DNA of 64,000 nucleotides from a virus (IMGVR_UViG_3300002092_001548:74209-138208); one strand, 5' to 3'; counted from the stretch's first letter, positions 3,094 through 62,299 are shown. The notes: generated by a model from the sequence alone, not told the origin. Made by a program: numbers and translations.

Positions 3094-4185
3094 GTGAGTA
3101 TCGCCCTACATCTGCCGCTTAATTCAACGTCATTAGGGCAAGTATCCTTTTCTATCCTGCGAGAAATTTACTCTCGCGGGATAGAGACGGTTCTTTTTCC
3201 AATTGGAGATGTTGATGCATCTACGCAACAACAAGATCCAACTTTCTTTGCGTGGATTCAGCAATCCATCCAATCTGCGCAAAAAACCCATAATAGAAAA
3301 AATCATATTTTTAAACTTTGGCATCTCGCGGGAAGCCTAGAAAGTTTTTCTGAAAAACAAGTTCTTCTTAGTTTTTATGAGCTAGACTCTCCAACCCAAA
3401 CCGAAATCAATATTGTAAACAATAACGCAAAGGTTCTTCTTTCTAGCAACTATGCTATTAGTGCATTCAATAATTTGGGGTGTACAAATTTAGAATTCAT
3501 ACCCCTTGCTTTTGATTCTACACACTTTAATGTAGACCCTAATCGTCCTAAAGACAGAACAGATATCCATTTTGGACTATGTGGAAAGCTTGAACCACAA
3601 CGCAAGAGACATTTAAAAGCACTTCAAGCTTGGGTAAAGCAATATGGAAATAAGCCGGGCTATTTCTTAAATTGTGCCATCTTCAATAAATTTTTAGATC
3701 CGAATGTTCAGTCTAACATTATCGGACAAGCCCTACAGGGGCAAAGATATTGGAATCTAAACTTCTTGCCCTTCATGGAAAGCAATGAGGCTTATAATAA
3801 ATTTATTAATAATAATGATATTATTCTTGCAACTAGCGGTGGAGAAGGCTGGGGGCTTCCAGAATTCCAAAGCGTAGCGATTGGAAAACACTGTGTTGGT
3901 ATAAATGCGCATGCGTATAAAGATTGGATGACAAATGAAAATTCTGTACTAGTCAATCCTAATAGCAAAATTCCAGTTTACGATGGAATGTTTTTTCACC
4001 AAGGGGCAGAAATAAATCAAGGTAATATATTTGATTGGGATGAGAATGACTTTATTAAAGGCATGCAAGAAGCCGAATCTAGATTCAGAAAAAATCCAGT
4101 AAATACAGCAGGACTAGAACTTCAGTCTAAATTTACTTATCCTAAAATGGTAGATTCGATTCTACAAATTATGAATAATCTATGA
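3094..4185 (+). CDS. GT4-like glycosyltransferase
   Basis: GKLEPQRK and SGGEGWGLPEFQS motifs. Confidence 0.8.
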   Translation: MSIALHLPLNSTSLGQVSFSILREIYSRGIETVLFPIGDVDASTQQQDPTFFAWIQQSIQSAQKTHNRKNHIFKLWHLAGSLESFSEKQVLLSFYELDSPTQTEINIVNNNAKVLLSSNYAISAFNNLGCTNLEFIPLAFDSTHFNVDPNRPKDRTDIHFGLCGKLEPQRKRHLKALQAWVKQYGNKPGYFLNCAIFNKFLDPNVQSNIIGQALQGQRYWNLNFLPFMESNEAYNKFINNNDIILATSGGEGWGLPEFQSVAIGKHCVGINAHAYKDWMTNENSVLVNPNSKIPVYDGMFFHQGAEINQGNIFDWDENDFIKGMQEAESRFRKNPVNTAGLELQSKFTYPKMVDSILQIMNNL

Positions 4186-4345
4186 GTGACGAAGATTTAA
4201 AATTAATTAATGGAGCTAGCGCAGAATTAAATAAACTAAAATTCAGTGATGGAACAGAATACTTTAGAATGCCAAACGGTACTCTAATAAGATCAACTCC
4301 TCGTGCCCATAAGATTAGAAAAAGAAATAAATTAAATAAAAAGTA

Positions 4346-4783
4346 ATGCCGCTTTATACATTCGAGCATCCAGAAACCGAAGAAACTCGTGATGTCTTTT
4401 TTAAGATGAACGATGAAAAGAAGTTTATTGACCAAGAGGGGGTTGAATGGAAAAGGGTATTTTATCCCCCTACTTTTGCGTTTGATACCATGATTGATCC
4501 ACATGATGAAAAAGCTTTTACGCGTAAAACAGAAAGAGGTGGAACCGTAGGTGAGCTTTTTGATATGTCAAAAGACATGAGTGAAAGGCGCGGTGGAGCA
4601 AAAAATGATGAAATTAAAGTCAAATATGACAATCAAAAGAAAAAAGAACTTGATGCTCAAGCTTTAAACAATTTAAAAACAGAACGTAAAAAACAATTTG
4701 AAGAGTTTAAAAAATTAGATAAATCAAGAGTAAAAGTAAAAAAAACAGCGCGGCAAACCACAAAAACTAAACGCGCCAATTAA
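4346..4783 (+). CDS. FmdB-like N-terminal domain protein (Cys-less)
   Basis: MPLYTFEHPETEE...WKRVF pattern; basic C-terminus. Confidence 0.5.
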   Translation: MPLYTFEHPETEETRDVFFKMNDEKKFIDQEGVEWKRVFYPPTFAFDTMIDPHDEKAFTRKTERGGTVGELFDMSKDMSERRGGAKNDEIKVKYDNQKKKELDAQALNNLKTERKKQFEEFKKLDKSRVKVKKTARQTTKTKRAN

Positions 4784-4857
4784 ATTTTCATTTCTGAATA
4801 TTTTAGTTTTAATGGGGCACAAGATGTTGTAATATACTAGCACAACGCTTTTAAATT

Positions 4858-5829
4858 ATGATATTCGAAGAACAAATTTCACGCAAACCTAACTCATACC
4901 CTTGGACAGAAGAATTCATTGAGGCAATGCATAATGGCTTCTGGACGGATAAGGAGTTCTCTTTTAAATCGGACATCCAGCAGTTTAAAGTTAATCTTAA
5001 CGATCAAGAAAGAGAAATTATTGTTAGAACTCTTTCTGCCGTTGGTCAGATTGAAGTAGCAGTTAAAACCTTTTGGGCAAAACTTGGTGAAAATTTGCCG
5101 CATCCGGCACTACAAGATCTTGGGTACGTTATGGCAAACGTAGAAGTTATTCATAATAATGCCTATGAGCGACTATTATCTGTTCTAGATTTGGAGGAAG
5201 TTTTTGAAGAAAACCTTAAACTTGAATGGATTCAAGGCAGGGTAAACTATCTGAGAAAGTATACCCATCGTTTTTACAAAGATTCTAAAAAACAATATCT
5301 TTATGCTCTTATCCTTTTTACGCTTTTTGTTGAAAATGTTAGTTTATTTAGCCAGTTTTATGTTATTAATTGGTTTGCAAAGTTTAAAAATGTTCTTAAA
5401 GATACCGACCAGCAAGTTAGATATACAAGAAATGAAGAAAATATTCATGCCCTTGTTGGTATTAAAATAATCAATACAATTCGTCAAGAATATCCAGAGC
5501 TATTTGACGCAGAACTAGAAGAAAAGATTATTTTTGAGGCAGGAGAGGCGCTTAAATCCGAATCTAAAATTGTTGACTGGATGGTAAATGGAATTCAAGA
5601 AGATGGATTAAATGCGCCGCTTCTCAAAGAATTCATTAAAAATCGTATTAATGATTCATTAACTCAAATTGGTTTTAGAAAAGCTTTTGAGGTTGATAAG
5701 GAACTATTAAAGAAAACCTTATGGTTTGAAGAAGAGCTATTGGGTAATAATATGACAGATTTTTTCCATTCTCGTCCAGTAGAATACTCAAAGAAAAGTC
5801 AATCATTTGATGAATCAGACTTGTTTTAG
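4858..5829 (+). CDS. nrdB: ribonucleotide reductase beta subunit, class Id-like
   Basis: QIEVAVKTFW, EVIHNNAY, ENVSLFSQF, EENIH, DFFHSRPVEY motifs. Confidence 0.95.
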   Translation: MIFEEQISRKPNSYPWTEEFIEAMHNGFWTDKEFSFKSDIQQFKVNLNDQEREIIVRTLSAVGQIEVAVKTFWAKLGENLPHPALQDLGYVMANVEVIHNNAYERLLSVLDLEEVFEENLKLEWIQGRVNYLRKYTHRFYKDSKKQYLYALILFTLFVENVSLFSQFYVINWFAKFKNVLKDTDQQVRYTRNEENIHALVGIKIINTIRQEYPELFDAELEEKIIFEAGEALKSESKIVDWMVNGIQEDGLNAPLLKEFIKNRINDSLTQIGFRKAFEVDKELLKKTLWFEEELLGNNMTDFFHSRPVEYSKKSQSFDESDLF

Positions 5830-5860
5830 TTTTCAAATAGTATTATAGTTATAATAACTT

Positions 5861-7534
5861 ATGAGTGAGACGACAGAGACTGATATTTATTGGCTTAACA
5901 AAGATTCTCGGAAGTTCCTGCAAAGGGGCTATCTTTTAGAAGGGGAGACACCAGAACAGAGAATTAGTGATATTGCAAAATCAGCGCAAAAACTTTTAGT
6001 GGATTTTACTGGAGACACAAAGTTTGCAAAGAAGTTTGAAAATTATATGCATCGTGGATTTTATTCACTAGCTTCTCCAATTTGGGCAAATTTTGGCAGA
6101 GACCGTGGGTTGCCAATTTCTTGTTTTGGGTCTCACATTCCAGACACTATGGAAGGCATTCTAGAAAAAGTTTCCGAAGTTGGAATGATGACAAAAGGCG
6201 GCGGCGGAACATCTGCATATTTTGGAGAATTACGTGGCCGTGGAGAGCGTATCTCTTCTGGCGGAGAGTCAACTGGCGCAGTTCACTTTATGGAGCTTTT
6301 TGACAAGCTAATGAATGTAGTTTCTCAGGGAAATGTTCGTCGTGGTAGTTTTGCCTCCTATCTTCCAGTTGACCATAAAGATATCGAAGAGTTCTTAAAA
6401 ATTCGGTCGGAAGGCAATAGTATTCAAGATTTATCCATTGGGGTAACAGTAACAGATGAATGGATGAAGTCAATGATCGAAGGAGACAAAGAAAAACGCC
6501 GAATTTGGGGGTTAGTTGTGAAGAAACGTTTTGAAAGTGGGTATCCGTATATTTTCTTTACAGATAATGTTAATAATAACGCCCCAGAAGTATACAAGAA
6601 AAAGAAGATGAAAATTAATCATTCCAATCTTTGCACTGAAATTATGTTGCCCAATAGCGCAGATGAATCATTTGTTTGCGACCTCTCCTCTATGAACCTT
6701 GATCGTTGGGAAGAATGGAAAGATACGGACGCAGTAGAAACAATGATTTATTTCTTAGATGCCGTAATGACTGAGTTTATTAATAAAACTGAAGGAATGC
6801 AGTTTATGGACGCACCTAGGAAGTTTGCAATGCGCCATCGTGCCCTAGGGCTAGGCGTTCTAGGCTGGCACTCTTTACTACAATCTAAAATGATACCATT
6901 TGAATCAATGGAAGCAAAATTCCTTAATTCTACCGTATGGAAGACAATTCGCGAAAAAGCAGATAAGGCCACTACCGAGCTTGCAAATTTGATTGGAGAA
7001 CCAGAAGTATTAAAGGGATACAATCGTAGAAATACTACCACCCTAGCCGTTGCACCCACAACATCTTCTTCTTTTATTCTAGGGCAAGTTTCTCCAAGCA
7101 TTGAACCGCTTGAAAGTAATTACTTTGTTAAAGACCTAGCTAAAGGCAAGTTTACACACAAGAATCCTTATCTTAAAAAGCTTTTGAAAGACAAGGGCAA
7201 ACATAATGACGATATTTGGATGGATATTTTAAAACATGGCGGGTCAGTTCAACATTTAGACTTTTTAACTCAAGATGAAAAAGATGTATTTAAAACATTC
7301 GCAGAAACTTCGCAGCGTGAAGTTGTAATTCAAGCGGCCGCTCGTCAAAAGTATATTGATCAAGGACAGAGCTTGAACCTAATGATCCCCGCCGGGACTG
7401 CCCCTAAAGCTGTTAATGAATTAAATATCTTTGCTTGGGAACAAGGTATTAAGAGCCTTTATTACCAACGCTCAAGCAATCCGGCAAAAGATCTAGCACG
7501 TTCAATCATGACCTGTAAATCTTGCGAGGCGTAA
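5861..7534 (+). CDS. nrdA: ribonucleotide reductase alpha subunit, short, no ATP cone
   Basis: PISCF, SNLCTEI, APTTSSS, KSLYY and C-terminal CKSC. Confidence 0.95.
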   Translation: MSETTETDIYWLNKDSRKFLQRGYLLEGETPEQRISDIAKSAQKLLVDFTGDTKFAKKFENYMHRGFYSLASPIWANFGRDRGLPISCFGSHIPDTMEGILEKVSEVGMMTKGGGGTSAYFGELRGRGERISSGGESTGAVHFMELFDKLMNVVSQGNVRRGSFASYLPVDHKDIEEFLKIRSEGNSIQDLSIGVTVTDEWMKSMIEGDKEKRRIWGLVVKKRFESGYPYIFFTDNVNNNAPEVYKKKKMKINHSNLCTEIMLPNSADESFVCDLSSMNLDRWEEWKDTDAVETMIYFLDAVMTEFINKTEGMQFMDAPRKFAMRHRALGLGVLGWHSLLQSKMIPFESMEAKFLNSTVWKTIREKADKATTELANLIGEPEVLKGYNRRNTTTLAVAPTTSSSFILGQVSPSIEPLESNYFVKDLAKGKFTHKNPYLKKLLKDKGKHNDDIWMDILKHGGSVQHLDFLTQDEKDVFKTFAETSQREVVIQAAARQKYIDQGQSLNLMIPAGTAPKAVNELNIFAWEQGIKSLYYQRSSNPAKDLARSIMTCKSCEA

Positions 7535-7542
7535 TATCAGTA

Positions 7543-8472: not shown

Positions 8473-9534
8473 ATGGACAATAATGTTAAAAAAGTCATTG
8501 TTACCGGAATTACTGGTCAAGATGGTAGTTATATGGTTGACTACTTATTAGAGAATACTGACTACCAAATTTACGGAATGGTTCGACGTTCTTCTACTAT
8601 TAATACAATCAATATTAATCAATTTTTAAATAACCCAAGATTTACGTTAGTTACTGGCGATCTTTCGGACAGTCAATCAATTGATAACTTAGTTAGGGAA
8701 ATACTTCCAGATTATTTTATTAATTTGGCGGCACAAAGTTTTGTTGGAAGCAGTTGGCAGATTCCAGAGCAAACATTTGATGTTGGCGCATTAGGTGTTT
8801 TAAGGTGTTTAGAAGCCATTCGGAAACACGTACCAAAATGTCATTTTTACAATGCAGGATCTAGTGAAGAGTTAGGAGATGTAGACTATTTTCCCCAAGA
8901 CGAAAAACACCCACTAAAACCAAGGAGTCCTTATGGCGCAGCAAAGGCAGCGGCCCGGCACCTTGTAAAAGTTTATCGTGAGAGTTATAACCTATATGCA
9001 ATCCAAGGATTACTATATAATCATGAATCAGAACGCAGGGGCGAAGAATTTGTTACTCGAAAAATTACGAAGGCAGTTGCAAGAATTAAAAAAGCAATAG
9101 ATAATAACCAACCGTTTCAACCTTTAGAGTTAGGTAATCTTGATGCAAAAAGAGACTGGAGTCACGCTCAAGATTTTGTAGACGGCATTTGGAAAATGCT
9201 AAATCAAGAAAAACCACTGGAACACCTTCTTTCGTCTAATGAAACTCACTCAGTAAAGGAATTTGTTGAACTAGCCTTTAAAGAAGCAGGACTGTTTGGA
9301 AATTGGGATTTTATAAACGGTAGAGAGAGTATAAATGAACAATATCTATATATTAACCATGATAGCCTAGCTTGCCTTGTTAGAATTAATCCAGAATTTT
9401 ATAGACCAGCCGAAGTTGATTTTTTATGGGGTAACGCAGAAAAAGCAAGAAATGAATTAAATTGGCAACCTAAAATTAATTTTAATGAACTAGTATCACG
9501 AATGGTTCGTAATGATATTGCGCTTGAAAAATAA
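8473..9534 (+). CDS. gmd: GDP-mannose 4,6-dehydratase
   Basis: TGITGQDGSY, SPYGAAK, NHESERRG, LGNLDAKRDW, RPAEVD. Confidence 0.95.
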   Translation: MDNNVKKVIVTGITGQDGSYMVDYLLENTDYQIYGMVRRSSTINTININQFLNNPRFTLVTGDLSDSQSIDNLVREILPDYFINLAAQSFVGSSWQIPEQTFDVGALGVLRCLEAIRKHVPKCHFYNAGSSEELGDVDYFPQDEKHPLKPRSPYGAAKAAARHLVKVYRESYNLYAIQGLLYNHESERRGEEFVTRKITKAVARIKKAIDNNQPFQPLELGNLDAKRDWSHAQDFVDGIWKMLNQEKPLEHLLSSNETHSVKEFVELAFKEAGLFGNWDFINGRESINEQYLYINHDSLACLVRINPEFYRPAEVDFLWGNAEKARNELNWQPKINFNELVSRMVRNDIALEK

Positions 9535-10085: not shown

Positions 10086-11158
10086 CAAGCAAAACAATCC
10101 TAGCATCCTTTCTCAAGGATACGAAAGGAGAACACTATAATTTTGAAGATGAAAAAATCTTTAATGTATCTACTGGATCATTATTACTTGATTCTGAGAT
10201 GGGTGGTGCCCTAGAGGTTCCAGCAATCTTGCGTTTTACCGGAGTAAGTGGCGGCGGCAAAACAAGCTCTGCGCTTCTTATTATGAAGAACTTCCTCAAT
10301 ACAGTTCCAAAAGGAAAGGGGTTTTTGGTTAAGGCAGAAGGACGTTTAAATTCAAATGTTAAAAATGTTTCTGGAGTAAAGTTTGTAGACAAACCAGAAG
10401 ACTGGCAAGAGGGTACATGTTTCGTTCTTCGTACAAATATCTATGAAAATGTAGCCACTATTATCATGGAGTTAATTAAAAATAATCCAGAAAATTCTAG
10501 GTATTATTTTCTTATTGACAGTATGGATGCGCTAATTGCAAAAAATGACTCACTTAAAGGTTTTGAGGATAGTCAAAAAGTAGCAGCCGGGGCCGTAATT
10601 AGTTCACATTTCTTAAAGATGATCATGCTACCACTATCAACCTTTGGTCACGTTTGCGCATTAATCTCACAAGTTCGTTCAAATGTTCAAATTAATCCTT
10701 ATGCAAAGTCAGACCCAAAGCTAACTAATAGTTCTGGTGGAAATGCGCTACAGCACTATGCGGATTGGATATTTGAGTTTCAACCGAGATATAAGGCAGA
10801 TCAAATTGTTGAGGATGGAAAAATCATTGGTCACTGGGCAAAAATTCTTTTACGCAAGACTACCAATGAAAAAGAAGGAACTGAAATTCTTTATCCTATT
10901 CGTCATGGCAGAACTGGTGGAAATTCTATTTGGATCGAATACGAAGTTGCAGATATGTTAATTCAGTGGGGCTTTGCAAAGAAAGCTGGCGCTTGGATCA
11001 ACTTTGATTCTGGGCTCCTAGCTGAAATTACAAAAGACACAAAACTAACTATGCCAGAAAAAATTCAAGGTATGGAACAGCTTAGAACGTTTCTAGAAGA
11101 AAATAAAGAAATTTGTTTATATCTTTTTAATAAATTTAAAGGGGCACTAGCAAAATGA
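10064..11158 (+). CDS. recA: RecA/UvsX-like recombinase
   Basis: STGSLLLD, Walker A GVSGGGKT, LIDS, SQVR, GGNALQHYA, KAGAW. Confidence 0.9.
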   Translation: MAKEDSVTSKTILASFLKDTKGEHYNFEDEKIFNVSTGSLLLDSEMGGALEVPAILRFTGVSGGGKTSSALLIMKNFLNTVPKGKGFLVKAEGRLNSNVKNVSGVKFVDKPEDWQEGTCFVLRTNIYENVATIIMELIKNNPENSRYYFLIDSMDALIAKNDSLKGFEDSQKVAAGAVISSHFLKMIMLPLSTFGHVCALISQVRSNVQINPYAKSDPKLTNSSGGNALQHYADWIFEFQPRYKADQIVEDGKIIGHWAKILLRKTTNEKEGTEILYPIRHGRTGGNSIWIEYEVADMLIQWGFAKKAGAWINFDSGLLAEITKDTKLTMPEKIQGMEQLRTFLEENKEICLYLFNKFKGALAK

Positions 11159-15030: not shown

Positions 15031-15734
15031 TGAAAGTAGCAGTACAATTAGCGGCTAACCCAAGATCCTTTAATAGGAATTACGAGTCTTTCAAAAAAAA
15101 TATTCTACATACACTTCATCCAGATGTATTTATTCATACTTGGAGACTAGATGGAAATGAACGGCCAGAAGTCACAACAGATGGTACATGCGAAGAATAT
15201 ATAGAATTATACAATCCAGTTGCGCATAAAATAGAAGATTTAAAATATAACTACCAGCCACTACAAACCATGATTCCACATTTTACATCTAGATATAGAG
15301 TAAATGAATTAAGAAAAAAATATCAAGAAGAAAATAATATTAAATATGATGTTATTATTATGGGCAGACCAGATATAAGATTAACAAATCCAATTCCCAA
15401 TAATAATTCTGCGGTTATAGGATCTGAATTTATGCCAGAATATGCAGCGAAAGTAAAAGAAGATGAAATATGGATACATCATTTTAAAGATGGACTACCA
15501 GCAGATTATTTATTTTACTGCTCACCAAAATGGATGGATATTGGAATTGAAGGGTGCTTCAATAATCTAGATAAATTAAATATCTACAATCCCGGCTCTG
15601 AGAGGTTATGGTGGCATGTTCTGAAAGAGAAGGGTTTTAATAGAAATGGATTTAAATATTATGGAAATTCCATTCATGATACGGAGCATGTGGACAATTC
15701 TTTTAGATTTTTTGATATCGAATGCGTACGATAA
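15030..15734 (+). CDS. putative glycan biosynthesis protein / glycosyltransferase
   Basis: KVAV..G/N.R, DVFIHTW, YDVIIMGRPD pattern common in polysaccharide clusters. Confidence 0.6.
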   Translation: MKVAVQLAANPRSFNRNYESFKKNILHTLHPDVFIHTWRLDGNERPEVTTDGTCEEYIELYNPVAHKIEDLKYNYQPLQTMIPHFTSRYRVNELRKKYQEENNIKYDVIIMGRPDIRLTNPIPNNNSAVIGSEFMPEYAAKVKEDEIWIHHFKDGLPADYLFYCSPKWMDIGIEGCFNNLDKLNIYNPGSERLWWHVLKEKGFNRNGFKYYGNSIHDTEHVDNSFRFFDIECVR

Positions 15735-20179: not shown

Positions 20180-20593
20180 ATGAAATTCAAAAACATTTAC
20201 GGCAGAGAAGTAAATAAAAATATTACTCCTTATATTACAGACTGGAACGAAGTAAAAGGAAGCAAAGCGCAATTTAACGTAAAGAAATTTTTTGAACAAT
20301 ATTGGTCTGGACAAGTTATTTGTGAAGAATTTCCCGTGGCCGGGTCGAGAATGCGTTGTGACCTCATTAATTTTACAAAAAAGATTGCCGTAGAAACGCA
20401 CGGACAACAGCACGACAAGTTCGTACCCTTCTTCCACAAGAACAGAACAAACTTTAAAAACAGCTTTAAACGCGACCTAGTCAAATATAACTGGCTGGAA
20501 TTAAATGGTTTTACAGTAATAGAAATATTTGATAATGAAATCAAGGATTTGTCTCGTGAATGGATAAAAGAAAAGTTTGGTATTGAAATTTAA
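20180..20593 (+). CDS. Vsr/DUF559-like PD-(D/E)xK endonuclease
   Basis: RCDL...IAVETHGQQH...RD..K..W motif. Confidence 0.7.
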   Translation: MKFKNIYGREVNKNITPYITDWNEVKGSKAQFNVKKFFEQYWSGQVICEEFPVAGSRMRCDLINFTKKIAVETHGQQHDKFVPFFHKNRTNFKNSFKRDLVKYNWLELNGFTVIEIFDNEIKDLSREWIKEKFGIEI

Positions 20594-20617: not shown

Positions 20618-21226
20618 ATGAGTACCTTTTATATTGGAGTAAGTGGGGTAGCAAGGGCTGGCAAAGATAGTTTTACAAACGCTCTTCTGCAAATCATTAA
20701 TAATGACGGTTTTAATGCAAAGCGTTTTGCTCTGGCTGAACCTCTGAAAAATGATTGTAAACAATTTATACACGACAAATTAGGCCTAGATGTCTGGACG
20801 GACAATACGGAAGAAAAATCTATTTTCAGAGAACTTCTAGTCTGGTACGGAAAAGTTAAACGCCAACAAACCCAAGGAAAGTATTGGACATCGCTTTTAG
20901 ATGAGCATGTAAGTCAAGTTAAACCAAAGGTTTGTATTATCTCTGATATTCGTTACCAACAATATGACGAAGATGAGGTTCACTGGCTTAAGAATAAAAA
21001 AAATGGAATTTTAATTCATATTGAAAGAACAGATATTGAAGGTAAGGTTATTCCCCCGGCCAATATGGACGAAACAATTAATGATTCGATTGTAAAAGAA
21101 CACGCCGATTACAAAGTATGTTGGCCTACAGTTGGTGTAGAGGATCTTTATCTTCTCGACACTTACGCAAAAAACGCTTATGATTCAGTAGTCCGAGAAA
21201 AACTATATGCAACAAAAAATTCGTAG
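20618..21226 (+). CDS. deoxynucleoside monophosphate kinase
   Basis: P-loop GVARAGKD, ALAEPLK, ISDIRY..E. Confidence 0.8.
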   Translation: MSTFYIGVSGVARAGKDSFTNALLQIINNDGFNAKRFALAEPLKNDCKQFIHDKLGLDVWTDNTEEKSIFRELLVWYGKVKRQQTQGKYWTSLLDEHVSQVKPKVCIISDIRYQQYDEDEVHWLKNKKNGILIHIERTDIEGKVIPPANMDETINDSIVKEHADYKVCWPTVGVEDLYLLDTYAKNAYDSVVREKLYATKNS

Positions 21227-41374: not shown

Positions 41375-41959
41375 ATGGATCATTTGAAAAAAGAAAACGT
41401 TCTGGTTTTAAACCGAAACTGGCAGGCAATTCATGTAAAGAACCCGGCCGAAGCAATATCAATGATGTATTCCGATTCCGCAACTGGACTTGATGTTCGC
41501 GGGGAAGATAATATGGTTCCATTAAAATGGAAAGATTGGCTTAATTTAGACATCGGTGAAAATGATGATTCTATTCAGACAGTTAGTGGAAGAATTAAAA
41601 TTCCAAAAGTTATTGTTCTTTGCACTTACGATAAAGTACCGAGAAAACGCCCCAAGTTTTCAACCAGAGCGCTTTGGGAACGTGATAATGGGACTTGTCA
41701 ATACACCGGGCGCCAACTTGTAATTGGCGAGGCAAATGTTGACCATGTAATTCCAAGATCCAGAGGCGGAAGGACTGATTGGACAAATTGCGTTATCACT
41801 CATAAAGAAGTTAATTCAAAAAAAGCAGACCGAACCCCACAAGAGGCCGGACTAAAACTAATTCGTCAACCTCTTCCCCCAAGAGATTTGCCATCTACTT
41901 TCTATATCCGAAATAAACACAATGTAGAAGAGTGGAATATATTCTTGACTTATAATTAA
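41375..41959 (+). CDS. HNH endonuclease (McrA-like)
   Basis: VLVLN, RD..CQYTG, DHVIPRSRGG..W.N, N..K. Confidence 0.85.
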   Translation: MDHLKKENVLVLNRNWQAIHVKNPAEAISMMYSDSATGLDVRGEDNMVPLKWKDWLNLDIGENDDSIQTVSGRIKIPKVIVLCTYDKVPRKRPKFSTRALWERDNGTCQYTGRQLVIGEANVDHVIPRSRGGRTDWTNCVITHKEVNSKKADRTPQEAGLKLIRQPLPPRDLPSTFYIRNKHNVEEWNIFLTYN

Positions 41960-41979: not shown

Positions 41980-42720
41980 ATGCAAGTTAAAATGTTCAAA
42001 CGGGATCCATCAGATAAAATTCTTGACCGTTATTTTGGAAAGCGTAACCTTCTTCCGTATGCCAGCGTTCAGTCTGTTGATGCATATTTTGCACTACCAA
42101 AAAATGAGCGCGAACGGTTTGGGCTATATCTTCGTCCACTAGCGCTTCCCGTTACTGGCTTTTGGTCATCTAATCCAGATATTAAAGGATGGGCTTTATG
42201 GGAAAAAGAAATTAAAAAACAATATCCAATTCAAGCCTATATTCGTGAATTTCTTTTATCTTACGATAATCCAGTTTACGCATTTCTTTCACTAAAGAAA
42301 ACACAATTAAATGACCTTAAGTGGAAAATTAACCGTTTAATTAAACCACTTCACCCACGAATTCATAAGGCATATCGCCGCCACGAAGTAAAAGACGTTT
42401 CATCTGCGCTCATAGATGTAAACTTTGCTCTTATCTTAGATTTTTGTCACGAGGAGGTTACAAATAGCGTTGTATGTTGGACGCACGATAAGAATCATAG
42501 GGATTTTCATAATCAATTAAAGAAAGCTGTTAAATATATCGAAGTAGAGCGCCCGGCGCTACAGGTTCGGGCCGATAAGGAATTAACAAGGGGAACCTTT
42601 TCAAAAAAAAGTGGTGTTAATAAATATGCAAAGTATTACCAACTAGAACAAAAAATTGAACAGCGCGATACCGCAACAGTTCTTTGGGCAATTAACAATC
42701 GCGGTTTCTTCTGGACATGA
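41980..42720 (+). CDS. hypothetical protein
   Basis: 246 aa ORF with its own sigma70-like promoter. Confidence 0.6.
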   Translation: MQVKMFKRDPSDKILDRYFGKRNLLPYASVQSVDAYFALPKNERERFGLYLRPLALPVTGFWSSNPDIKGWALWEKEIKKQYPIQAYIREFLLSYDNPVYAFLSLKKTQLNDLKWKINRLIKPLHPRIHKAYRRHEVKDVSSALIDVNFALILDFCHEEVTNSVVCWTHDKNHRDFHNQLKKAVKYIEVERPALQVRADKELTRGTFSKKSGVNKYAKYYQLEQKIEQRDTATVLWAINNRGFFWT

Positions 42721-43721
42721 GTTCACCTAAAATTCTTATCGTAGAGTCTACGAGTAAAACAAAACCACTCTGCCAAAATTTCAGCGATACGAGTATTGTT
42801 CACTGCCGAAACTCAATCATTTTAAAGAACTATTTGGGTGCAGACCTTCTTGATGGAGAGTATGCACTAGCATCAATTTTAAAGAATAAATATGACGTAA
42901 TCATATGTTGCTATGCCTCGCCATATATGCCGCATATTCCATATAGGAAGGTTATAGATCAAAACCCCGGCGCCCGACTTGTTTGGATGGTTAACGATCA
43001 CGACCTAGAGGATAATCAACTCTTACGCTACGCCATCACACAAGGTCGCAGCTATGATATGATCTGCAATAATCCAAGAAATGGATACAGGCATTGGATC
43101 TTGGGTAAGAATATTGAAGGCAAAAAACTAAATGACTTTATTATTGATTGGCACACAACTAATTTAAATTCATTAATTTTTAGAGATACTAGATCGATAC
43201 AGAATCCAGAAGGTAAGAATGGAACGGTTTACTATGGAACTTATAGAAAGCATCGCGCCGATGATTTTAAACTATATTTAAATCGCGGTATTACCGTATC
43301 TAGTTCTATTAAACACTGGAAGAAGTTTGAGGCATTAGGTTGTACGGCTAATTTTATTCGCCCCCTTGGGTGGGAGAAAGATAAGGAGAACCTTAGAGAT
43401 TTTAAATATTCAATTTATTTAGAAGATAAGCATACTCACGATAACTTTGCTTTTATGGCAAATCGTTACTATGAAGCCCTAATGTGCGATGTTGTTCCCT
43501 TATTTGCCCCCAATACGAGCAAAACACTAAAGGGAAGCAATTACGGTTCTGATATCGCGACCAGTCAGATTCTTCCAGAAGGCCTATATGGTGATGCACT
43601 ATTAGAATATACTTCCAAGCTAGACCACTCTTATTATATTAAGAATCAACGTTTGCAGTTTGATAATATTCTTGGAGAAAGACAAATGGTACTACAGGGA
43701 ATTAAAGATTTTTTATTTTGA
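42717..43721 (+). CDS. GT-B protein resembling T4 DNA beta-glucosyltransferase
   Basis: VYYGTYRKHR and ANRYYEALMCDVV resemble BGT YGGSFR..R and LRVWETMASDAV. Confidence 0.5.
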   Translation: MSSPKILIVESTSKTKPLCQNFSDTSIVHCRNSIILKNYLGADLLDGEYALASILKNKYDVIICCYASPYMPHIPYRKVIDQNPGARLVWMVNDHDLEDNQLLRYAITQGRSYDMICNNPRNGYRHWILGKNIEGKKLNDFIIDWHTTNLNSLIFRDTRSIQNPEGKNGTVYYGTYRKHRADDFKLYLNRGITVSSSIKHWKKFEALGCTANFIRPLGWEKDKENLRDFKYSIYLEDKHTHDNFAFMANRYYEALMCDVVPLFAPNTSKTLKGSNYGSDIATSQILPEGLYGDALLEYTSKLDHSYYIKNQRLQFDNILGERQMVLQGIKDFLF

Positions 43722-44703: not shown

Positions 44704-46431
44704 TTAGTATTGGTAAATATTGAAAGTTCCGTCGGTATTTATATTAATTGACCAAGCAACCCCGTCACCATCATATAAAATTAAACCATCCGGCCCGGCT
44801 GATAAATTATTAGCCGTATTTGCAGTATTTGCATAAGTAGCGATACTAGCAGAAACGGCTGCGACATTACTAATATTAGCCCCATCTCCGTGTATTCCTC
44901 CAGAAATATAAACACCATTAGTAAAACCTAAAGTAAGCGATCCGTAACCTTGACCTCCAGTAATACTACCATCAGAAATAATCATTTCATTTCCATAACC
45001 TGAAATTAATGACCCACCATTACCACTTAGGGCTAGGGTTCCATTAATATTAACATCCGTGTTAAAAGTTTTTGTACCACTTATTGTTTGAGCGCCAGTT
45101 GTGTAAACCGTATTAGGAACGGAAGATATAAAACCGCTCGGATTTGATTTCGGATAGAGCGATGCCAATGAAGACGTTAATCCTAAAATTTTACTCTGTT
45201 GAATTTGTGCGTTAGCATCAACATCTGAATCGAAAATACCAGTGGCCGGGCTCTGATAAACACCATTTATCACCTTAACAACACCATTCCCCGCAACGGC
45301 GGGAATTGTTGTATGACAGTGCGATGGGCGGTAAGAATCATAATAGATAGTAATAGTTCTTGCGGTGTTCGTATTTTTAACCGCAAACATTTGAACGTAA
45401 AGACGTTCGTTCGTAGAAATACCAGTTTGAGGTACTGTTACGTTCAATAAATATTGAGCTACTGCTGTTGCATCATAAAGATAAACATAATCAGAAGCGC
45501 CCAAGAGACGATAGCTTCCAGCACCACTAGGGTTATATATATTAACAACTACTTTAAGTGCTGTTTGCGTTGCATTGGTACTATTTGTACTGGCCCAAAT
45601 GTTAAAATCCCAAAGTCCGGCTGGAATATTACTAATATTAGGATCACCACTGGCAGTTAAGAAACTAGATACTAATATGTCCGATCCTTTCGGCGAGAGG
45701 TCGGGAGTTGTATATTGCCCACTTCCCACTGAATAAGTTTTACCCCAAAGAGATACCGGAGTTAAACCTGTATTTAAACCTCCAGACGGTGCAAGTCCAG
45801 ACTGGTTTAAAAAATCAAAATAATATGTTATTCCACCACCACCATTCCCACCCGCCGCAACAGCGCCAGGCGCCCAAGCCGAACCATTCCATTGTAGCGT
45901 TTGACCAAGTCCGGGTGCCGATGGCTGAATTGGGAGACCCTGAATACTTGTTACAGTTGGAGAGAGTAAGGATCCACTTACGTCATAACCAGTAATATAA
46001 CTAAACTGAGAAACGCCCGTAATATAATTAGATGGATTATTGAGAGGATAATAACTTCCAGTTAAAGTTCCGCTTAAAGAAGAAATAGAAGAGGCAAGAG
46101 TCGAGCCAGTTAATCCTAAATTCGTAATTGTTGCATACATTAGTGCATCATAACCGCTTAAGCCAGTAAGCTGTATGTAGGTAGCATAGGAAGAAAGATT
46201 TACGCCCGTAATATAACCGCTCGGATTAGATGCGGCGTAAAATACGCCAGTTTGCGCTGTAGTTACAAACGAACCAGTTTGTGATTTCAAGGCATATCCA
46301 GTCAAAGACCCACTCACCCCACTAGCTAAACTATACCCAAGATTCCACTGCGTGGAATTACCACTAGGATCATAAATAACCCCAGACCCACTCAGGGTTC
46401 CATATACTGTTGTATTTCCTAGTAAAGCCAT
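44704..46431 (-). CDS. tail fibre-like protein
   Basis: G/S/T-rich, YPxxNPSGFI repeats, GQTLQWNGSAW, QTISGTKTF. Confidence 0.75.
   Translation of the reverse strand: MALLGNTTVYGTLSGSGVIYDPSGNSTQWNLGYSLASGVSGSLTGYALKSQTGSFVTTAQTGVFYAASNPSGYITGVNLSSYATYIQLTGLSGYDALMYATITNLGLTGSTLASSISSLSGTLTGSYYPLNNPSNYITGVSQFSYITGYDVSGSLLSPTVTSIQGLPIQPSAPGLGQTLQWNGSAWAPGAVAAGGNGGGGITYYFDFLNQSGLAPSGGLNTGLTPVSLWGKTYSVGSGQYTTPDLSPKGSDILVSSFLTASGDPNISNIPAGLWDFNIWASTNSTNATQTALKVVVNIYNPSGAGSYRLLGASDYVYLYDATAVAQYLLNVTVPQTGISTNERLYVQMFAVKNTNTARTITIYYDSYRPSHCHTTIPAVAGNGVVKVINGVYQSPATGIFDSDVDANAQIQQSKILGLTSSLASLYPKSNPSGFISSVPNTVYTTGAQTISGTKTFNTDVNINGTLALSGNGGSLISGYGNEMIISDGSITGGQGYGSLTLGFTNGVYISGGIHGDGANISNVAAVSASIATYANTANTANNLSAGPDGLILYDGDGVAWSININTDGTFNIYQY
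46262..46287. repeat. 26-nt exact repeat shared between the two fibre genes (second copy 48008-48033)
   Basis: GTTACAAACGAACCAGTTTGTGATTT in both, inside a longer imperfect match. Confidence 0.85.
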
Positions 46432-48577: not shown

Positions 48578-48994
48578 TTAAAGTGCGTAAGATCCAACTA
48601 CATTAACATTATCATAAACATTAAGATTTCCGGCGATATAAGTATTTGCCGCCTGACCAGAAACAATTTGAACTGCATAGTAATAGGCCCCGGCCCTGAA
48701 GTTCATCTGTGATCCTGACAATTGATTCAAAACTGCATAATTTCCACTAGTACCAGTAATTGAAATTGTTCCATTTGAGGTACTCCAAGTATTTGCGATT
48801 GTTTGCCATTGGCTGTCATAATCAACAATATCTTGATAAGTATTTGTCTCGTTATATTGAGTTCCCAGAGTGGCATTAATAGATACTCCACTCAAATTTA
48901 TTGGATTATTACTCGAATCTGTAAAGATAAAGGTAATTGGGCCGTAACTATCTCCTCTGTAGGCATCAGGTAAATTGTAGAGCGTGGGAATCAT
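48578..48994 (-). CDS. BppU-like baseplate/fibre-anchoring protein
   Basis: RGDS..ITF..D....INLSG...G.YYY.VQ...G pattern. Confidence 0.6.
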   Translation of the reverse strand: MIPTLYNLPDAYRGDSYGPITFIFTDSSNNPINLSGVSINATLGTQYNETNTYQDIVDYDSQWQTIANTWSTSNGTISITGTSGNYAVLNQLSGSQMNFRAGAYYYAVQIVSGQAANTYIAGNLNVYDNVNVVGSYAL

Positions 48995-49096: not shown

Positions 49097-49615
49097 ATGA
49101 CAACTGTAAAAACACAAAAAACGTACAAGCTAAGTAACTTTGAGGCTGGTGATCGTTTTGAGATCCCCTCTGTAACAGAGACAATGAGGAATTTAGTAGT
49201 TATTTCTTCCAATATCTCCTCAACTCTGGTCGAAGGTGAGCGCCGAGATACGGTTTCCGACACTTGGAAGCCATTTCGGTTCCCAATTTCAAATGATGTA
49301 AATGCCGTTTTAGTAACTAAGGGCGCGCCAAAGATCACAGACTCTGTTAAGACTAACGCTACAGATTCTACTACACAAACGGAACCTACTGAGGCCCGGC
49401 GCCGTGGTCGTCCTGCAAAGCAGTCGAAACCCCTAAATGAACTGGGTGGAACAAAAGGCGAGTTCACTGTAAAAGATTTGGTGGCAAAGAACGACTTAAA
49501 AGAGTACGATGCCCATAATTTGGTTCGCTCGGCTATCAAGAATGGCTCCATTAAGGTTGTCAGAGAAGAGTCTGGTGGCCGGGGCAAGCCAAGAAAGGTT
49601 TATTGTCTAGTTTAA
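49097..49615 (+). CDS. putative DNA-binding protein with AT-hook and winged-helix-like C-terminus
   Basis: RRGRP motif; FTVKDL...GGRGKPRKVY. Confidence 0.55.
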   Translation: MTTVKTQKTYKLSNFEAGDRFEIPSVTETMRNLVVISSNISSTLVEGERRDTVSDTWKPFRFPISNDVNAVLVTKGAPKITDSVKTNATDSTTQTEPTEARRRGRPAKQSKPLNELGGTKGEFTVKDLVAKNDLKEYDAHNLVRSAIKNGSIKVVREESGGRGKPRKVYCLV

Positions 49616-50265: not shown

Positions 50266-50943
50266 ATGTACGATCTAAAAGAAATTTATCCAAGAGTTTT
50301 TTTGGTCACAATGGATAATTCATACGATTTGGCAATGACCTTTTGTCGGGCACAGGAGTTTTACGAATCTCCATATAAAGAAATTAGGGGTAAAAATTTT
50401 AACATGGTAGAGTTCCAAAGACTTTACACCATGCGCCGGGGCGAATCATGTTTCGCATATCCCGAAGACTGGTGTGGGTTCAATGTTCCTAGTAATGCAA
50501 TTTGGAATCTTTATTACTCTAATAAGATAGAAGACTTAAACCAATACGATACTATTTTCCATAAAATAATTGATAAAATAACTTGTGATACTAACAAAAA
50601 TGAATATAGGTATTACCTAATAGGTGCCGGGACCGGAGATGAACGAACAAAAAATCATGAGATTGCCCATGCATTTTATTATCTTCACCCATCATATAAA
50701 AAAGCTGCTAATAAGATTACAAGTCAACTTCCAGAAAAACTTTACAATAAATTCAAAAAACACTTGCTTGGTATCGGGTATTCTGATAAATCCATTAAAG
50801 ATGAAATTCAAGCATACCTATCCTCTGACCCAGAAAATCTCACAGAGATAAACGGAACTTCTGAAAGGGAAAACAAGATCATCAACAAAATATCTGAACA
50901 GTTAAAAAATCTAAACAATGAATATAGAACACGCAAAGGTTAA
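50266..50943 (+). CDS. hypothetical protein with HExxH motif
   Basis: RAQEFYESP, GFNVP, HEIAH, DEIQAY. Confidence 0.6.
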   Translation: MYDLKEIYPRVFLVTMDNSYDLAMTFCRAQEFYESPYKEIRGKNFNMVEFQRLYTMRRGESCFAYPEDWCGFNVPSNAIWNLYYSNKIEDLNQYDTIFHKIIDKITCDTNKNEYRYYLIGAGTGDERTKNHEIAHAFYYLHPSYKKAANKITSQLPEKLYNKFKKHLLGIGYSDKSIKDEIQAYLSSDPENLTEINGTSERENKIINKISEQLKNLNNEYRTRKG

Positions 50944-52590: not shown

Positions 52591-53062
52591 GATCCTAGAC
52601 ATCCCGCAATATATTCTTGTTGACGCAATTAAACGCTCCAAAAAATTAGGAAGGCTACATAACAGTATTACTAAGGGCGCGGGTAATATAATAGGTTATA
52701 TTGGTCAAGCATTAGTGGCCCGGCACCTCAAGGCGCAAGATGCGGATACTTTTGAATATGATGTTGTAAAAGATGGCGTTCGTTACGAAGTAAAAAGCAA
52801 AAGTTGTACTAGTAGACCCCGACCGGATTACGACTGTTCAGTCTCAGGTGCAAATGCCGAACAAGAATGCGACTACTATGTTTTTGTGCGTGTTATGCAA
52901 GATTTCTCAAAAGCATGGATATTGGGAAAGAAGAAACCAAAAAAGTATTTTAAAGAGGCGCGATTCTGTAAGAAGGGAGAGAAAGATGAAAAAAGTCATT
53001 TAGGTTGGAAATTTAAAGGTGATTGTTACAATTTAGATATCGCATCTTTAGATCCCATATAA
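52553..53062 (+). CDS. putative PD-(D/E)xK nuclease
   Basis: YD..(x)..YEVKSK, DYYVFVRV, AWILG. Confidence 0.6.
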   Translation: MKKSPTKQVEMIEILDIPQYILVDAIKRSKKLGRLHNSITKGAGNIIGYIGQALVARHLKAQDADTFEYDVVKDGVRYEVKSKSCTSRPRPDYDCSVSGANAEQECDYYVFVRVMQDFSKAWILGKKKPKKYFKEARFCKKGEKDEKSHLGWKFKGDCYNLDIASLDPI

Positions 53063-53067: not shown

Positions 53068-53193
53068 ATGAGTGAACAAAAATCAACAGGCGCCGGGAAA
53101 GGAGACAAGTTACGCCCAACGGATAAAAAGAAATGGGATGCAAATTTTGATTCAATTAAGTGGCCCTCGAAAGAAAAGAAAAATAAGTCTTGA
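53068..53193 (+). CDS. 41-aa phage microprotein
   Basis: Below the ORF-track cutoff; MSEQKSTGAGKGDKLRPTDKKKWDANFDSIKW. Confidence 0.55.
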   Translation: MSEQKSTGAGKGDKLRPTDKKKWDANFDSIKWPSKEKKNKS

Positions 53194-54181: not shown

Positions 54182-54377
54182 AGACACGCTATTCGCACTC
54201 GAAGTTCTTTGGGCCGTTGCTATTTGTGCTGCCGCCTTTATCTCACATAAATTTTACCATGATGATGTTGAATCATATATGGATAATTGTCACCCATTGT
54301 TTATTATCTTCTTGGGCCGGGGCGTTTGGCTATTTGGAATTTCTTTTCTCATTTATTTAATTCCATTCATTCGATAA
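54168..54377 (+). CDS. small two-TM protein
   Basis: Hydrophobic; TTGACT-N17-TACAAT just upstream. Confidence 0.5.
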   Translation: MEIIKDTLFALEVLWAVAICAAAFISHKFYHDDVESYMDNCHPLFIIFLGRGVWLFGISFLIYLIPFIR

Positions 54378-58206: not shown

Positions 58207-58250
58207 ATTTAAATTGATTTCTGAATAAAACTGTGTAAGAATAAGTAGAT

Positions 58251-58329
58251 GTGTCGGTGGCTGAGATGGCCCAAAGCATAGATCTGCAAAATCTAAAAAC
58301 CGCCGGTTCAAATCCGGCCCGGCACTCCA
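58251..58329 (+). tRNA. tRNA-Cys(GCA)
   Basis: GTGTCGG/CCGGCAC, ctGCAaa, U73, CCA. Confidence 0.9.
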
Positions 58330-58335
58330 ATTTTA

Positions 58336-59183: not shown

Positions 59184-59184
59184 T

Positions 59185-59466: not shown

Positions 59467-59903
59467 CCGATAAAAACCCCCTAGAACTCCATAGGGAATG
59501 GATTACTCATAGGGAAGGCCTAGTTCAAGACGCTCTAGCACTTTGGTATGAAGTAATTGCGCAAGACCATCACAAAGATCGTGATTGCCATTTTTATATT
59601 GAACGTGAGTATTCTACATATAGGCCCGGCGGCTGGTGTGCATACCACAATGGTTATATCTTAAAAGACTATAGGGAGGAATTTCCAACTTTTGAACAGG
59701 CACTTCAAGGCCTATTGACGTTTCTTCTAGAGAAGCTTGCCGAAGAAATTTCAACAACAATTCAAAATTTCGATCAATTAGTCAAAGATGGCATTCATAA
59801 AGAAGAGGGGCGCGAAATTTTTCATAAATACATGAAGCGTCTGGAGATTCTAGTTATGCGTCAATATTATGACGTAGAAAAAGAAGAGAAGCCACAAAAC
59901 TAA
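59439..59903 (+). CDS. hypothetical protein
   Basis: DHHKDRDCHFYI..HNGYI motif. Confidence 0.55.
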   Translation: MDNNTDIDVADKNPLELHREWITHREGLVQDALALWYEVIAQDHHKDRDCHFYIEREYSTYRPGGWCAYHNGYILKDYREEFPTFEQALQGLLTFLLEKLAEEISTTIQNFDQLVKDGIHKEEGREIFHKYMKRLEILVMRQYYDVEKEEKPQN

Positions 59904-59926: not shown

Positions 59927-60148
59927 ATGAATACTGACATTTTATATCGCCGCCTAGACACAATCGAGTGGATGCTAACCCTTCCGCCCGGCGAGAACGA
60001 TTCTAAAATCGAAATGGCCGTTAAAAATTGTAAGGATAATGGTTCTTCAACTAAAGAAATAATTCAGTTCGTTAATATTGCCTTTCGTGCCGAGATAGAT
60101 GAATTTATCCTTTGGCTAGATGAGATGAGAACCAAGGCAATAAGATGA
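59927..60148 (+). CDS. hypothetical protein
   Basis: Packed ORF. Confidence 0.5.
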   Translation: MNTDILYRRLDTIEWMLTLPPGENDSKIEMAVKNCKDNGSSTKEIIQFVNIAFRAEIDEFILWLDEMRTKAIR

Positions 60149-61336: not shown

Positions 61337-61360
61337 TTAAAATTGGTTTACACTTTCCGC

Positions 61361-61630
61361 ATGAGTCAACTTATAACACAATTAGTAGAACCACCTAAAA
61401 ATGTTCTAACTGAAACGTATTTAATTGAGATTTTAATACCCGGCAGCGAGAAATGGCTCGATGCTGGGCTCACAAGCCGTTGGAAAACTTTCGAGGAAGC
61501 GGATAAAGAAATGACAACAATAGCTTCGGCATATAATAACCAGTATAAATTCCGCGTGAGTCACATTGTTTGCACGGAATCAATTCTAAAAGAAATTGCA
61601 GGAGAAAGAATAATTGCCTTGCTTGAATAA
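61361..61630 (+). CDS. hypothetical protein
   Basis: ATG 6 nt after TTGCAA-N17-TACACT. Confidence 0.5.
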   Translation: MSQLITQLVEPPKNVLTETYLIEILIPGSEKWLDAGLTSRWKTFEEADKEMTTIASAYNNQYKFRVSHIVCTESILKEIAGERIIALLE

Positions 61631-61705
61631 ACAAATTATAACAACATAGATAAATGCACATTAATATTTACATTCAAACATACCGAAAGGTCACCGAATA
61701 ACCCA

Positions 61706-62299
61706 ATGGGAATGTTTGATTACTTATATTGTAAGAAGGAGTTACCTCTTTGCGGAGCGGTAAAAGACCTTAAAATTAACTGGAAAAAAGTTGACTTCCA
61801 GACTAAAGACTTGGATTCCATCATGGATACTTATGAAATAACAGCGGCCGGGCGGCTAAGGGTTCGCCACCCCTCTTGGAGATTTGATAATAATCCCGAA
61901 GCCGAGAAGCCAAAATTTAAAAATATAAATTATACTGGTTCTATTAATTTTTATACTAATGTATATTCTGATACTAAATATTCTAGTTTAGAATGGGGAG
62001 AGATTACAGACGAGACGATTGAAGAGTGCGAGGCGCTGGAATATTGGGTAGAGTTCGTCGCCATCTTCCATAAGGGAAGGCTAGAAGCTCTGGAATGGTT
62101 CAAGACCGACATTCATCCCGTGAAGGAACAATTAATTAATCAAAAAAATTGGCACGAGGAGCGCATGAAGAAAGAAAGCAAATTAGGATTCAAGATCAAA
62201 AACACATTAAGGAAAGTGCCGGGCTATAAGAAACTAATTAAAAGTTTACAGCGTTTCGTTTCCCTTCAAAGTAAAATCGTAAACAAACTTTATTATTAA
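61706..62299 (+). CDS. hypothetical phage protein
   Basis: MGMFD..C..FQTKDL..YEI..GRL motif. Confidence 0.6.
   Translation: MGMFDYLYCKKELPLCGAVKDLKINWKKVDFQTKDLDSIMDTYEITAAGRLRVRHPSWRFDNNPEAEKPKFKNINYTGSINFYTNVYSDTKYSSLEWGEITDETIEECEALEYWVEFVAIFHKGRLEALEWFKTDIHPVKEQLINQKNWHEERMKKESKLGFKIKNTLRKVPGYKKLIKSLQRFVSLQSKIVNKLYY

Follow-up and report, generated by a model that had tools for sequence, protein, structure and literature searches.

The six-base word GCCGGG and its reverse complement CCCGGC occur far more often than expected in a 64,000-nucleotide stretch of virus DNA (IMGVR_UViG_3300002092_001548:74209-138208), referred to below as the window. The window comes from an uncultured freshwater phage and occupies the final 64 kb of G000, a single virus record of 138,208 bp that CheckV rates as 89% complete. 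The overabundance reflects a genuine DNA-level signal and consists of two layers, of which the second centres on a seven-base near-palindrome, GCCSGGC (where S is C or G). The window has a guanine plus cytosine (GC) content of 35.4%, and the encoded proteins include DnaE, DnaB, ribonucleotide reductase, and a RecA-like protein, all open reading frames (ORFs) having been delineated with a crude ORF caller. A cluster at 49623-59273 holds 13 transfer RNA (tRNA) genes and a 433-nt transfer-messenger RNA (54492-54924) with a predicted tag ending in YALAA. Positions are those of the window unless they are given as genome positions of the whole record.

No close match to G000 was found in the phage collection, its DnaE being less than 33% identical to the DnaE of named phages, and near-identical DNA was present only in assembled contigs of freshwater and lake metagenomes, with no RNA data set listed among the sources. 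Relatives were retrieved from the IMG/VR genomes by a DnaE-based search. The nearest of these, G001, shares 93% amino-acid identity in DnaE and approximately 75% nucleotide identity over 66 kb, followed by the complete genomes G002 and G003 (82% DnaE identity) and by the 170-kb G005 (44%); a further relative, G004, was compared over 58 kb.

A recount of the window yielded 34 hexamer sites, 17 on each strand, and every coordinate listed in the original prediction was matched. The same prediction had estimated a GC content of about 33% and only some three sites by zero-order reasoning; the measured values are 35.4% and 3.9, so that the estimate was slightly off while the excess itself is real. 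Zero-order expectation overstates the excess and is a poor yardstick here, as hexamers composed only of G and C (GC-only) have a median count of 10 in the window, and the next four after GCCGGG/CCCGGC reach 27, 25, 24, and 23. Dinucleotide shuffling of the window gave 6.76±2.62 expected sites with a maximum of 14, and none of the 100 shuffles reached 34. In the window, no other hexamer exceeds its expectation from a maximal-order (order-4) Markov model as strongly as this word (34 versus 15.2, z 7.0), a result which speaks against k-mer composition as the explanation of the counts, and it also ranks first in the whole genome (78 versus 36.6, z 10.2), with its shifted form CCGGGC second (71 versus 36.1). 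Shuffling synonymous codons within genes likewise left the excess in place (34 versus 7.8±2.4, with a maximum of 16 in 300 shuffles).

The statement that the sites lie in different reading frames was borne out, as all six frame-by-orientation classes are enriched, by 4.0-11.1-fold over the synonymous-shuffle null in the window. The same classes are enriched 3.7-9.2-fold, each above all 200 shuffles, in the part of G000 from genome position 19 kb onwards, a region designated “beyond 19 kb” that leaves out the repeats at genome positions 2.1-18.6 kb. Enrichment in all six classes indicates that the signal acts on DNA and is therefore not a translational codon-pair bias. The absence of strand bias was also corroborated, since the equal split in the window is paralleled beyond 19 kb by 17 GCCGGGC and 16 GCCCGGC on the sense strand; in that region, 54 of the 56 hexamers are coding, with no bias of position within genes or of sense orientation. 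The hexamer occurs at a density of one per 2.1 kb and the heptamer at one per 3.5 kb.

Restriction-site avoidance is described as common in double-stranded DNA phages (PMC6286503). G000 is strikingly poor in several short palindromes, namely CCWGG (W being A or T; 16 observed versus 119.1 expected, z -12.1), GGWCC (9 versus 78.9), CCCGGG (1 versus 17.5), and GCCGGC (0 versus 14.3), as well as in ACCGGC (3 versus 20.0) and CCCGAG (0 versus 15.3), while CTCGAG, GTCGAC, and GACGTC are each absent. The avoided set CCWGG, GGWCC, CCCGGG, GCCGGC, RCCGGY, and CYCGRG looks like a list of host restriction enzyme targets. GGTACC, CACGTG, CGATCG, and CCGCGG were also observed once each, and ACCTGC three times against 20 expected. 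Compared with G002 and G003, the genomes G000 and G001 avoid GGWCC, CYCGRG, RCCGGY, and ACCTGC more strongly, a difference which hints at another host or another set of host restriction systems.

Near-elimination of these palindromes pushes GC-rich codon strings such as those for Pro-Gly, Ala-Gly, and Ala-Arg into CCSGG or GCCGGG spelling, and this by-product makes up the first layer of the excess. CCSGG numbers 45 in the window, against 24.5 in a free synonymous shuffle and approximately 33.5 once the avoided words are banned from the shuffled sequences; beyond 19 kb, the corresponding figures are 98, 51, and 88. Most of the CCSGG excess is thus a by-product, CCWGG not being available to spell Pro-Gly and strings like it, and the by-product share is if anything overestimated, since the shuffle chains push the avoided words nearer to zero than the real genome does. 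The ban similarly raises the expected number of hexamers beyond 19 kb from 15.0 to 28, nearly a doubling. Such figures invite the reading that the motif is functionless throughout, being left over from GC-only runs and from avoidance of CCWGG, CCCGGG, GCCGGC, RCCGGY, and CYCGRG. However, banning the avoided words in the codon-preserving null does not abolish the excess, as 34 hexamers in the window still face an expectation of 11.8-12.6±2.5.

A second ingredient of the first layer is that the lineage makes more short GC-only runs than its relatives. As a class, GC-only hexamers exceed the codon-shuffle null by 1.78-fold in G000 and 1.74-fold in G001, compared with 1.35-fold in G002, 1.28-fold in G003, and 1.00-fold in G005, and runs of at least eight G or C reach densities of 96 (G000) and 73 (G001) per 100 kb, against 31 in G002 and 35 in G005. 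To the reading of the motif as a pure leftover this tendency lends further weight, although the excess of GC-only runs would then itself stay unexplained. GC-only stretches lie, for example, at 7334-7341, 49321-49329, and 62543-62552, and the 8-mers GGCGCGCC and GCGGCCGC occur at six and four sites in G000, respectively. A general liking for GC-only palindromes was considered and rejected, as G001 contains none of the 16 GC-only 8-mer palindromes yet retains the heptamer excess.

The strictest null employed was accordingly a genome-wide shuffle preserving the GC count of each codon with the avoided words banned. It is conservative on purpose and absorbs part of any real signal, because many sites arose through changes from AT-ending to GC-ending codons; a within-gene version was dropped, its rare-codon groups being too small to let most sites shift. 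Against the strictest null, the window hexamer stands at 34 versus 23.7±2.9 (maximum 29 among 27 samples), and the hexamer beyond 19 kb at 56 versus 44.3±4.3. Depending on the null, between about one third (12.6 of 34) and about two thirds (23.7 of 34) of the window sites can thus be attributed to protein sequence, codon usage, avoidance, and the habit of forming GC runs, and the remainder, especially in its heptamer form, needs a motif-specific cause.

The heptamer is where that remainder is most visible. CCSGG had been put forward as the core; the pentamer is indeed present, but the enriched unit is the longer quasi-palindrome GCCSGGC. Among the 123 CCSGG of the genome, 71 carry a 5' G, 78 a 3' C, and 54 both, these full heptamers being distributed as 34 beyond 19 kb (17 of them in the window, accounting for 17 of the 34 hexamers there) and another 20 in a repeat family at genome positions 2.1-18.6 kb, outside the window. 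Expectations for the 17 window heptamers are 2.1 under the synonymous shuffle, 3.7-3.8 with the ban, and, by the strictest null, 8.0±2.2; these three nulls give 4.6, 8.6, and 18.4±2.9 for the 34 beyond 19 kb, where the heptamer is the top outlier of all 7-mers under codon shuffling (z 13.7). The related GCCCGG/CCGGGC beyond 19 kb likewise exceeds the strictest null (48 versus 30.7±4.0), and G is favoured over C before CCCGG (48 versus 18), a preference that no avoided word accounts for. All of this sits poorly with a motif that is merely left over.

The origin of individual sites was traced at orthologous positions in G001 and G002 wherever these could be aligned. The first heptamer, GCCGGGC at 3654..3660, lies in frame 2 of ORF 3094-4185(+) over Lys-Pro-Gly; G001 has ATCAGG and G002 ACAGGG there, and the site was therefore gained in the G000 lineage. 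Ala-Gly is repeatedly recoded, GCC GGG in G000 standing against GCT GGA or GCT GGT in relatives at five positions. GCCGGG at 7391..7396, in frame 0 of the ribonucleotide reductase ORF 5861-7534(+), is one such synonymous recoding (Ala-Gly; GCCGGA in G001, GCTGGA in G002), and comparable Ala-Gly hexamers in frame 0 are found at 10586..10591 in the RecA-like ORF 10064-11158(+) (GCGGGA in G001, GCTGGA in G002), at 22715..22720 in ORF 22688-23587(+) (GCT GGT in both relatives), and at 24266..24271 in ORF 24071-25063(+) (GCT GGA in G001). Ala-Arg-His changed from GCT AGA CAT to GCC CGG CAC at two separate positions. The first is the heptamer GCCCGGC at 8953..8959 in frame 1 of ORF 8443-9534(+), where the relatives have GCT AGA CAT and GCT AGG CAT, so that several synonymous changes toward rare codons were required; the second, GCCCGGC at 52718..52724 in frame 1 of ORF 52553-53062(+), is kept in G001, whereas G002 has GCT AGA CAT.

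Further sites differ from the relatives in the same manner. CCCGGC at 21055..21060 (ORF 20603-21226(+), frame 2) spans Pro-Pro-Ala, which reads CCC CCG GCC in G000 but CCT CCT GCC or CCA CCA GCA in relatives, and the heptamer GCCCGGC at 30848..30854 (ORF 30409-31494(+), frame 2) encodes Gly-Pro-Ala, the same residues being spelled GGG CCA GCT in G001. The heptamer GCCGGGC at 45245..45251 (ORF 44704-46431(-), frame 2) is matched by GCAGGAG in G002. In G001, TCCGGC takes the place of CCCGGC at 48689..48694 (ORF 48578-49051(-), frame 0), GCAGGG that of GCCGGG at 49578..49583 (ORF 49051-49587(-), frame 1), GCAGGA that of GCCGGG at 53092..53097 (the sole window site outside any called ORF), ACCCGGA that of the heptamer GCCCGGC at 59986..59992 (ORF 59927-60148(+), frame 0), and CCGGAC that of CCCGGC at 61439..61444 (ORF 61343-61630(+), frame 0). 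At differing sites the relatives have ordinary codons, AT-ending ones in G002, and none begins from a restriction site, which is not what would be expected if the motif were simply the refuge of banned palindromes. The changes are multi-step and directed toward rare codons, and some involve transversions (e.g., AGA to CGG).

Other sites are kept in G001. These comprise the hexamers GCCGGG at 20339..20344 (frame 0 of the small nuclease-like ORF 20180-20593(+); TTAGGC in G002) and at 25301..25306 (ORF 25088-25648(+), frame 0; GCCGCC in G002), and CCCGGC at 41443..41448 (ORF 41375-41959(+), frame 2) and at 42966..42971 (ORF 42717-43721(+), frame 0). Heptamers kept in the same way are GCCCGGC at 25492..25498 (ORF 25088-25648(+), frame 0, Pro-Gly; TAGTGGC in G002), GCCGGGC at 37708..37714 (ORF 37642-38115(+), frame 0), GCCCGGC at 59624..59630 (ORF 59439-59903(+), frame 0), and GCCGGGC at 62218..62224 (ORF 61706-62299(+), frame 2). 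Indels fall at three heptamers, GCCCGGC at 33233..33239 (ORF 32752-33999(+), frame 2; indel in the relatives), GCCCGGC at 49394..49400 (ORF 49051-49587(-), frame 1; in G001), and GCCGGGC at 61847..61853 (ORF 61706-62299(+), frame 0; in G001). The sites that could not be aligned to relatives are the hexamers CCCGGC at 15591..15596 (ORF 15030-15734(+), frame 0, Pro-Gly), GCCGGG at 50435..50440 and 50626..50631 (ORF 50266-50943(+), frames 1 and 0, respectively), and GCCGGG at 54316..54321 (small called ORF 54162-54377(+)), together with the heptamers GCCGGGC at 39399..39405 (ORF 39189-39482(-), frame 0), GCCCGGC at 42551..42557 (ORF 41980-42720(+), frame 2), and GCCCGGC at 44793..44799 (ORF 44704-46431(-), frame 0). 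One last heptamer, GCCCGGC at 58317..58323, lies within tRNA-Cys (58251-58329, +), the ORF called there being spurious.

Taken over the genome, 9 of 24 aligned heptamers of G000 are identical in G001, and one more has its central base flipped; in the reverse direction, a heptamer is present in G000 at 10 of 17 aligned heptamers of G001. By comparison, 19 of 119 GC-only 7-mers genome-wide and 15.3% of 7-mers within 150 bp of the sites are kept from G000 to G001, and local GC-rich 7-mers are labile (5 of 112 kept), again contrary to what a mere leftover would predict. None of 13 aligned G000 heptamers is identical in G002.

The distribution among the relatives is equally uneven. G001 carries 24 dispersed heptamers, where 4.2 are expected with the ban alone and 14.6±2.2 by the strictest null, and both hexamers are its top GC-only words (4.6-fold and 4.4-fold). 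G002 has 5 heptamers outside the repeats versus 5.4 under the strictest null, leaving no residual excess, and G003 has 7, the strictest null having been applied to G000, G001, and G002; in both G002 and G003 the heptamers are mainly doublets in the repeat region. G004 avoids restriction words as strongly as G000 (CCWGG 1, GGWCC 2, RCCGGY 2, and CYCGRG 0 in 58 kb), yet only 4 of its 27 CCSGG are heptamers, compared with 34 of 98 in G000 beyond 19 kb. G005 has a single heptamer in 170 kb, with hexamers depleted (2 versus 7.6). CCGG is also scarce in its 170 kb (61 sites, while the 138 kb of G000 contain 202), and its avoidance of CCWGG is far weaker (71 sites), its word biases therefore being sharply unlike those of the G000-G003 clade. 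As G002, G004, and G005 lack the dispersed excess, it is limited to G000 and G001 and does not simply follow from avoidance. Altogether, the view that the heptamer is functionless in itself is considered possible but on the doubtful side.

The other setting of the heptamer lies outside the window. Twelve intergenic elements in the early region, at G000 genome positions 2,100-18,600, each consist of a 25-bp imperfect palindrome and an adjoining GCCSGGC-N3-GCCSGGC, and the same element is present in 13 copies in G002 (L017-L018) and 11 in G003 (L031-L032). The doublet can be written CCSGG-N5-CCSGG, with two heptamers 10 bp apart, and the heptamer is the conserved core of the element, a position difficult to reconcile with a chance residue of codon choice. 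By hand count over G000, G002, and G003, the two heptamers of a doublet have an identical central base, read along one strand, in 29 of 36 cases, and both centres are flipped in several orthologous doublets between G000 and G002. A hairpin formed by two such heptamers would therefore carry a central mismatch, and the pattern suggests that duplex DNA is read as a tandem pair rather than that a hairpin is selected. As a separate observation, the arms of the 25-bp palindrome start with TAAG and finish with CTTA, and no other tetramer of G000 comes close to the under-representation of CTTA/TAAG (1020 versus 1483, z -15.5); a link between the two is possible.

It is mainly because the doubled heptamer forms the repeat core that a clade-specific protein recognising it is proposed. 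In the second layer, GCCSGGC is gained and retained beyond the level of the first, and it would be read by a sequence-specific DNA-binding protein of the phage clade, probably as a symmetric dimer. Hence the reading favoured here, to which a probability of roughly 0.45 is attached, combines a by-product of restriction avoidance with a selected protein-recognition site, the latter part deduced from sequence patterns. The original prediction had named a dispersed protein-binding site as an alternative; this is now the best reading for the motif-specific part, although the share of the excess due to avoidance was not foreseen. More specifically, and only tentatively, GCCSGGC may be the word recognised by a putative phage-encoded DNA-binding or nicking protein. 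As tandem doublets it would punctuate the early-gene cassettes of the entire clade, and in the lineage of G000 and G001 selection would have spread it through coding DNA in all frames, once every 2-3.5 kb or so, to label the whole genome as the phage's own. Such a mark could serve in protection, in compaction, or as entry points for recombination or replication.

The original prediction had leaned towards a modification or repair target, in which a methyltransferase would mark CCSGG or GCCSGGC and a Vsr-like nuclease would restore T:G mismatches, so that the number of sites rises. A Dcm-like CCSGG core, the lack of strand bias, and independence of reading frame are what such a process would leave, and the enzyme could be the host's. 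Nonetheless, the search for a C5 methyltransferase in the 138-kb phage record returned no match to PF00145, nor was there one to PF01555 (N6/N4 methyltransferases), PF02086 (D12-class), or PF03852 (Vsr) in this 89% complete genome. The supposed Vsr-like nuclease, the 137-residue product of ORF 20180-20593(+), resembles DUF559 only weakly (E 0.0035, which falls below the cut-off) and hits HNH and homing-endonuclease families of PHROG; it is conserved in G001 (88% tblastn identity) and also in G002 (76%), G003 (77%), and G005 (45%), which show no enrichment, and thus does not track the excess. Nor are the C-to-T neighbours depleted, as had been suggested for checking: GCTGGGC (12 versus 5.0), ACCGGGC (11 versus 4.7), GTCGGG (19 versus 14.2), and GCCGAG (25 versus 17.7) are representative of transition neighbours at 1.1-2.4-fold the null, and the depletion of CCCAG is equally strong in G002, G003, and G005. 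Site gains that include transversions and two- or three-base changes fit badly as well, and a modification or repair target is considered very improbable.

A link to an enzyme resembling beta-glucosyltransferase fared no better. The T4 beta-glucosyltransferase family was not detected among the 10 ORFs scanned against Pfam at 8.4-18 kb, which returned only sugar methyltransferases, GT17 and GT34 glycosyltransferases, and dehydratases, and most of the cluster is missing from G001, where the enrichment stays. The sugar-chemistry cluster at 11514-20164 was seen to encode FkbM-type and other S-adenosylmethionine-dependent methyltransferases, GT34-like and GT17-like glycosyltransferases, a DegT-family CDP-6-deoxy-hexulose 3-dehydrase, and epimerases/dehydratases, with a GDP-mannose 4,6-dehydratase upstream at 8443-9534; most of its genes have no counterpart in G001-G005.

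The reader of the heptamer might instead belong to the host, a Chi-like signal being recognised by an enzyme that moves along DNA (a nuclease of the RecBCD/AddAB type or a defence motor) and thereby protecting linear phage DNA, with a near-palindrome working from either end. Density and Poisson-like spacing (coefficient of variation 0.88-0.91) resemble those of dispersed genome signals, and the enrichment coincides with the changed avoidance profile of G000 and G001, a coincidence suggestive of a host switch. Chi and KOPS words are asymmetric and strand-skewed, however, and no orientation skew exists here; moreover, the doubled heptamer sits in repeats that are specific to the phage and occur in G002 and G003 as well, which argues for a phage factor. 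The host search itself revealed no relative among genome contigs and nothing in them to identify the host, the only named source of sugar dehydrase homologues was a cyanobacterial metagenome-assembled genome (60% identity), and NblA, looked for as a host clue, was not found. A host-directed signal is accordingly regarded as improbable.

Several observations weigh against the favoured combination of avoidance by-product and selected recognition site. The residual under the strictest null is modest (z approximately 3.6 for the window hexamer, and about 1.6-2.1 times expectation for the heptamer), and G002 carries the doublets without a dispersed excess under that null. The Fisher values for the better conservation of heptamers, 0.0097 for 10/24 versus 19/119 and 0.0067 and 4e-5 for 9/24 versus the two local controls, are optimistic, because the control k-mers overlap one another. 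CCSGG lacking the G and C flanks is also kept from G000 to G001 in 6 of 18 cases, and some extra conservation is expected without function, because the banned CCWGG blocks synonymous exits from Pro-Gly sites. No second half-site was found near the dispersed heptamers, unlike the repeat doublets, and their spacing is Poisson-like. Of 11 genes flagged as common only to G000 and G001, the 8 scanned (all but the partial matches at genome positions 67616-69286 and 69299-70141 and a 73-residue ORF at genome positions 70730-71206) yielded no informative domain, and no candidate for a protein reading the word emerged from them. Finally, a second GC-only family is enriched (GCGCGCC, 23 versus 4.7 beyond 19 kb), and the heptamer may be just the most extreme case of a broader, unexplained tendency to GC-only runs.

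In a full-text literature search, with supplementary files outside its reach, neither GCCSGGC nor its two heptamers were reported as a dispersed motif, the two heptamers being listed as a terminator stem in phage JG004. Among known systems, the idea that words close to avoided restriction palindromes of phage genomes rise in compensation is familiar from older literature, and the likeness here is that the enriched word lies one substitution from nearly eliminated palindromes. The differences are that the ban alone leaves 34 versus 12.6 hexamers and 17 versus 3.8 heptamers in the window, that the ancestral states of the sites are not restriction sites, and that G004 combines equal avoidance with few heptamers. 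Avoidance can nevertheless inflate a neighbouring word several-fold, and k-mer outliers in AT-rich phage genomes need to be corrected for it.

Very short patch repair by Dcm and Vsr in Escherichia coli enriches CCWGG-related words and depletes their T-containing neighbours. Its CC-N-GG core, lack of strand bias, and presence in every reading frame recall the motif described here, which differs in that no methyltransferase or Vsr match exists, the T neighbours are not depleted, and CCWGG itself is avoided. HIP1 (GCGATCGC) of cyanobacteria is a GC-rich palindrome over-represented genome-wide with a suspected link to methylation; the word in G000 is another one, at far lower density and with no methyltransferase found, and CGATCG occurs once in 138 kb. 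Dispersed functional oligomers offer a further comparison, namely Chi, KOPS, and the DNA uptake sequences, with which the heptamer shares a short GC-rich form, a frequency of about one per 2-4 kb, a genic location in all frames, and better conservation than comparable words, whereas it differs in being an unskewed near-palindrome, in residing in a phage rather than a chromosome, and in occurring also as a tandem doublet in intergenic repeats. Should the motif-specific layer have a function, the phage would have sown its own short recognition word through its genome, a word tied to the repeats that split the early region into cassettes and comparable to the Chi and uptake sequences of bacteria.

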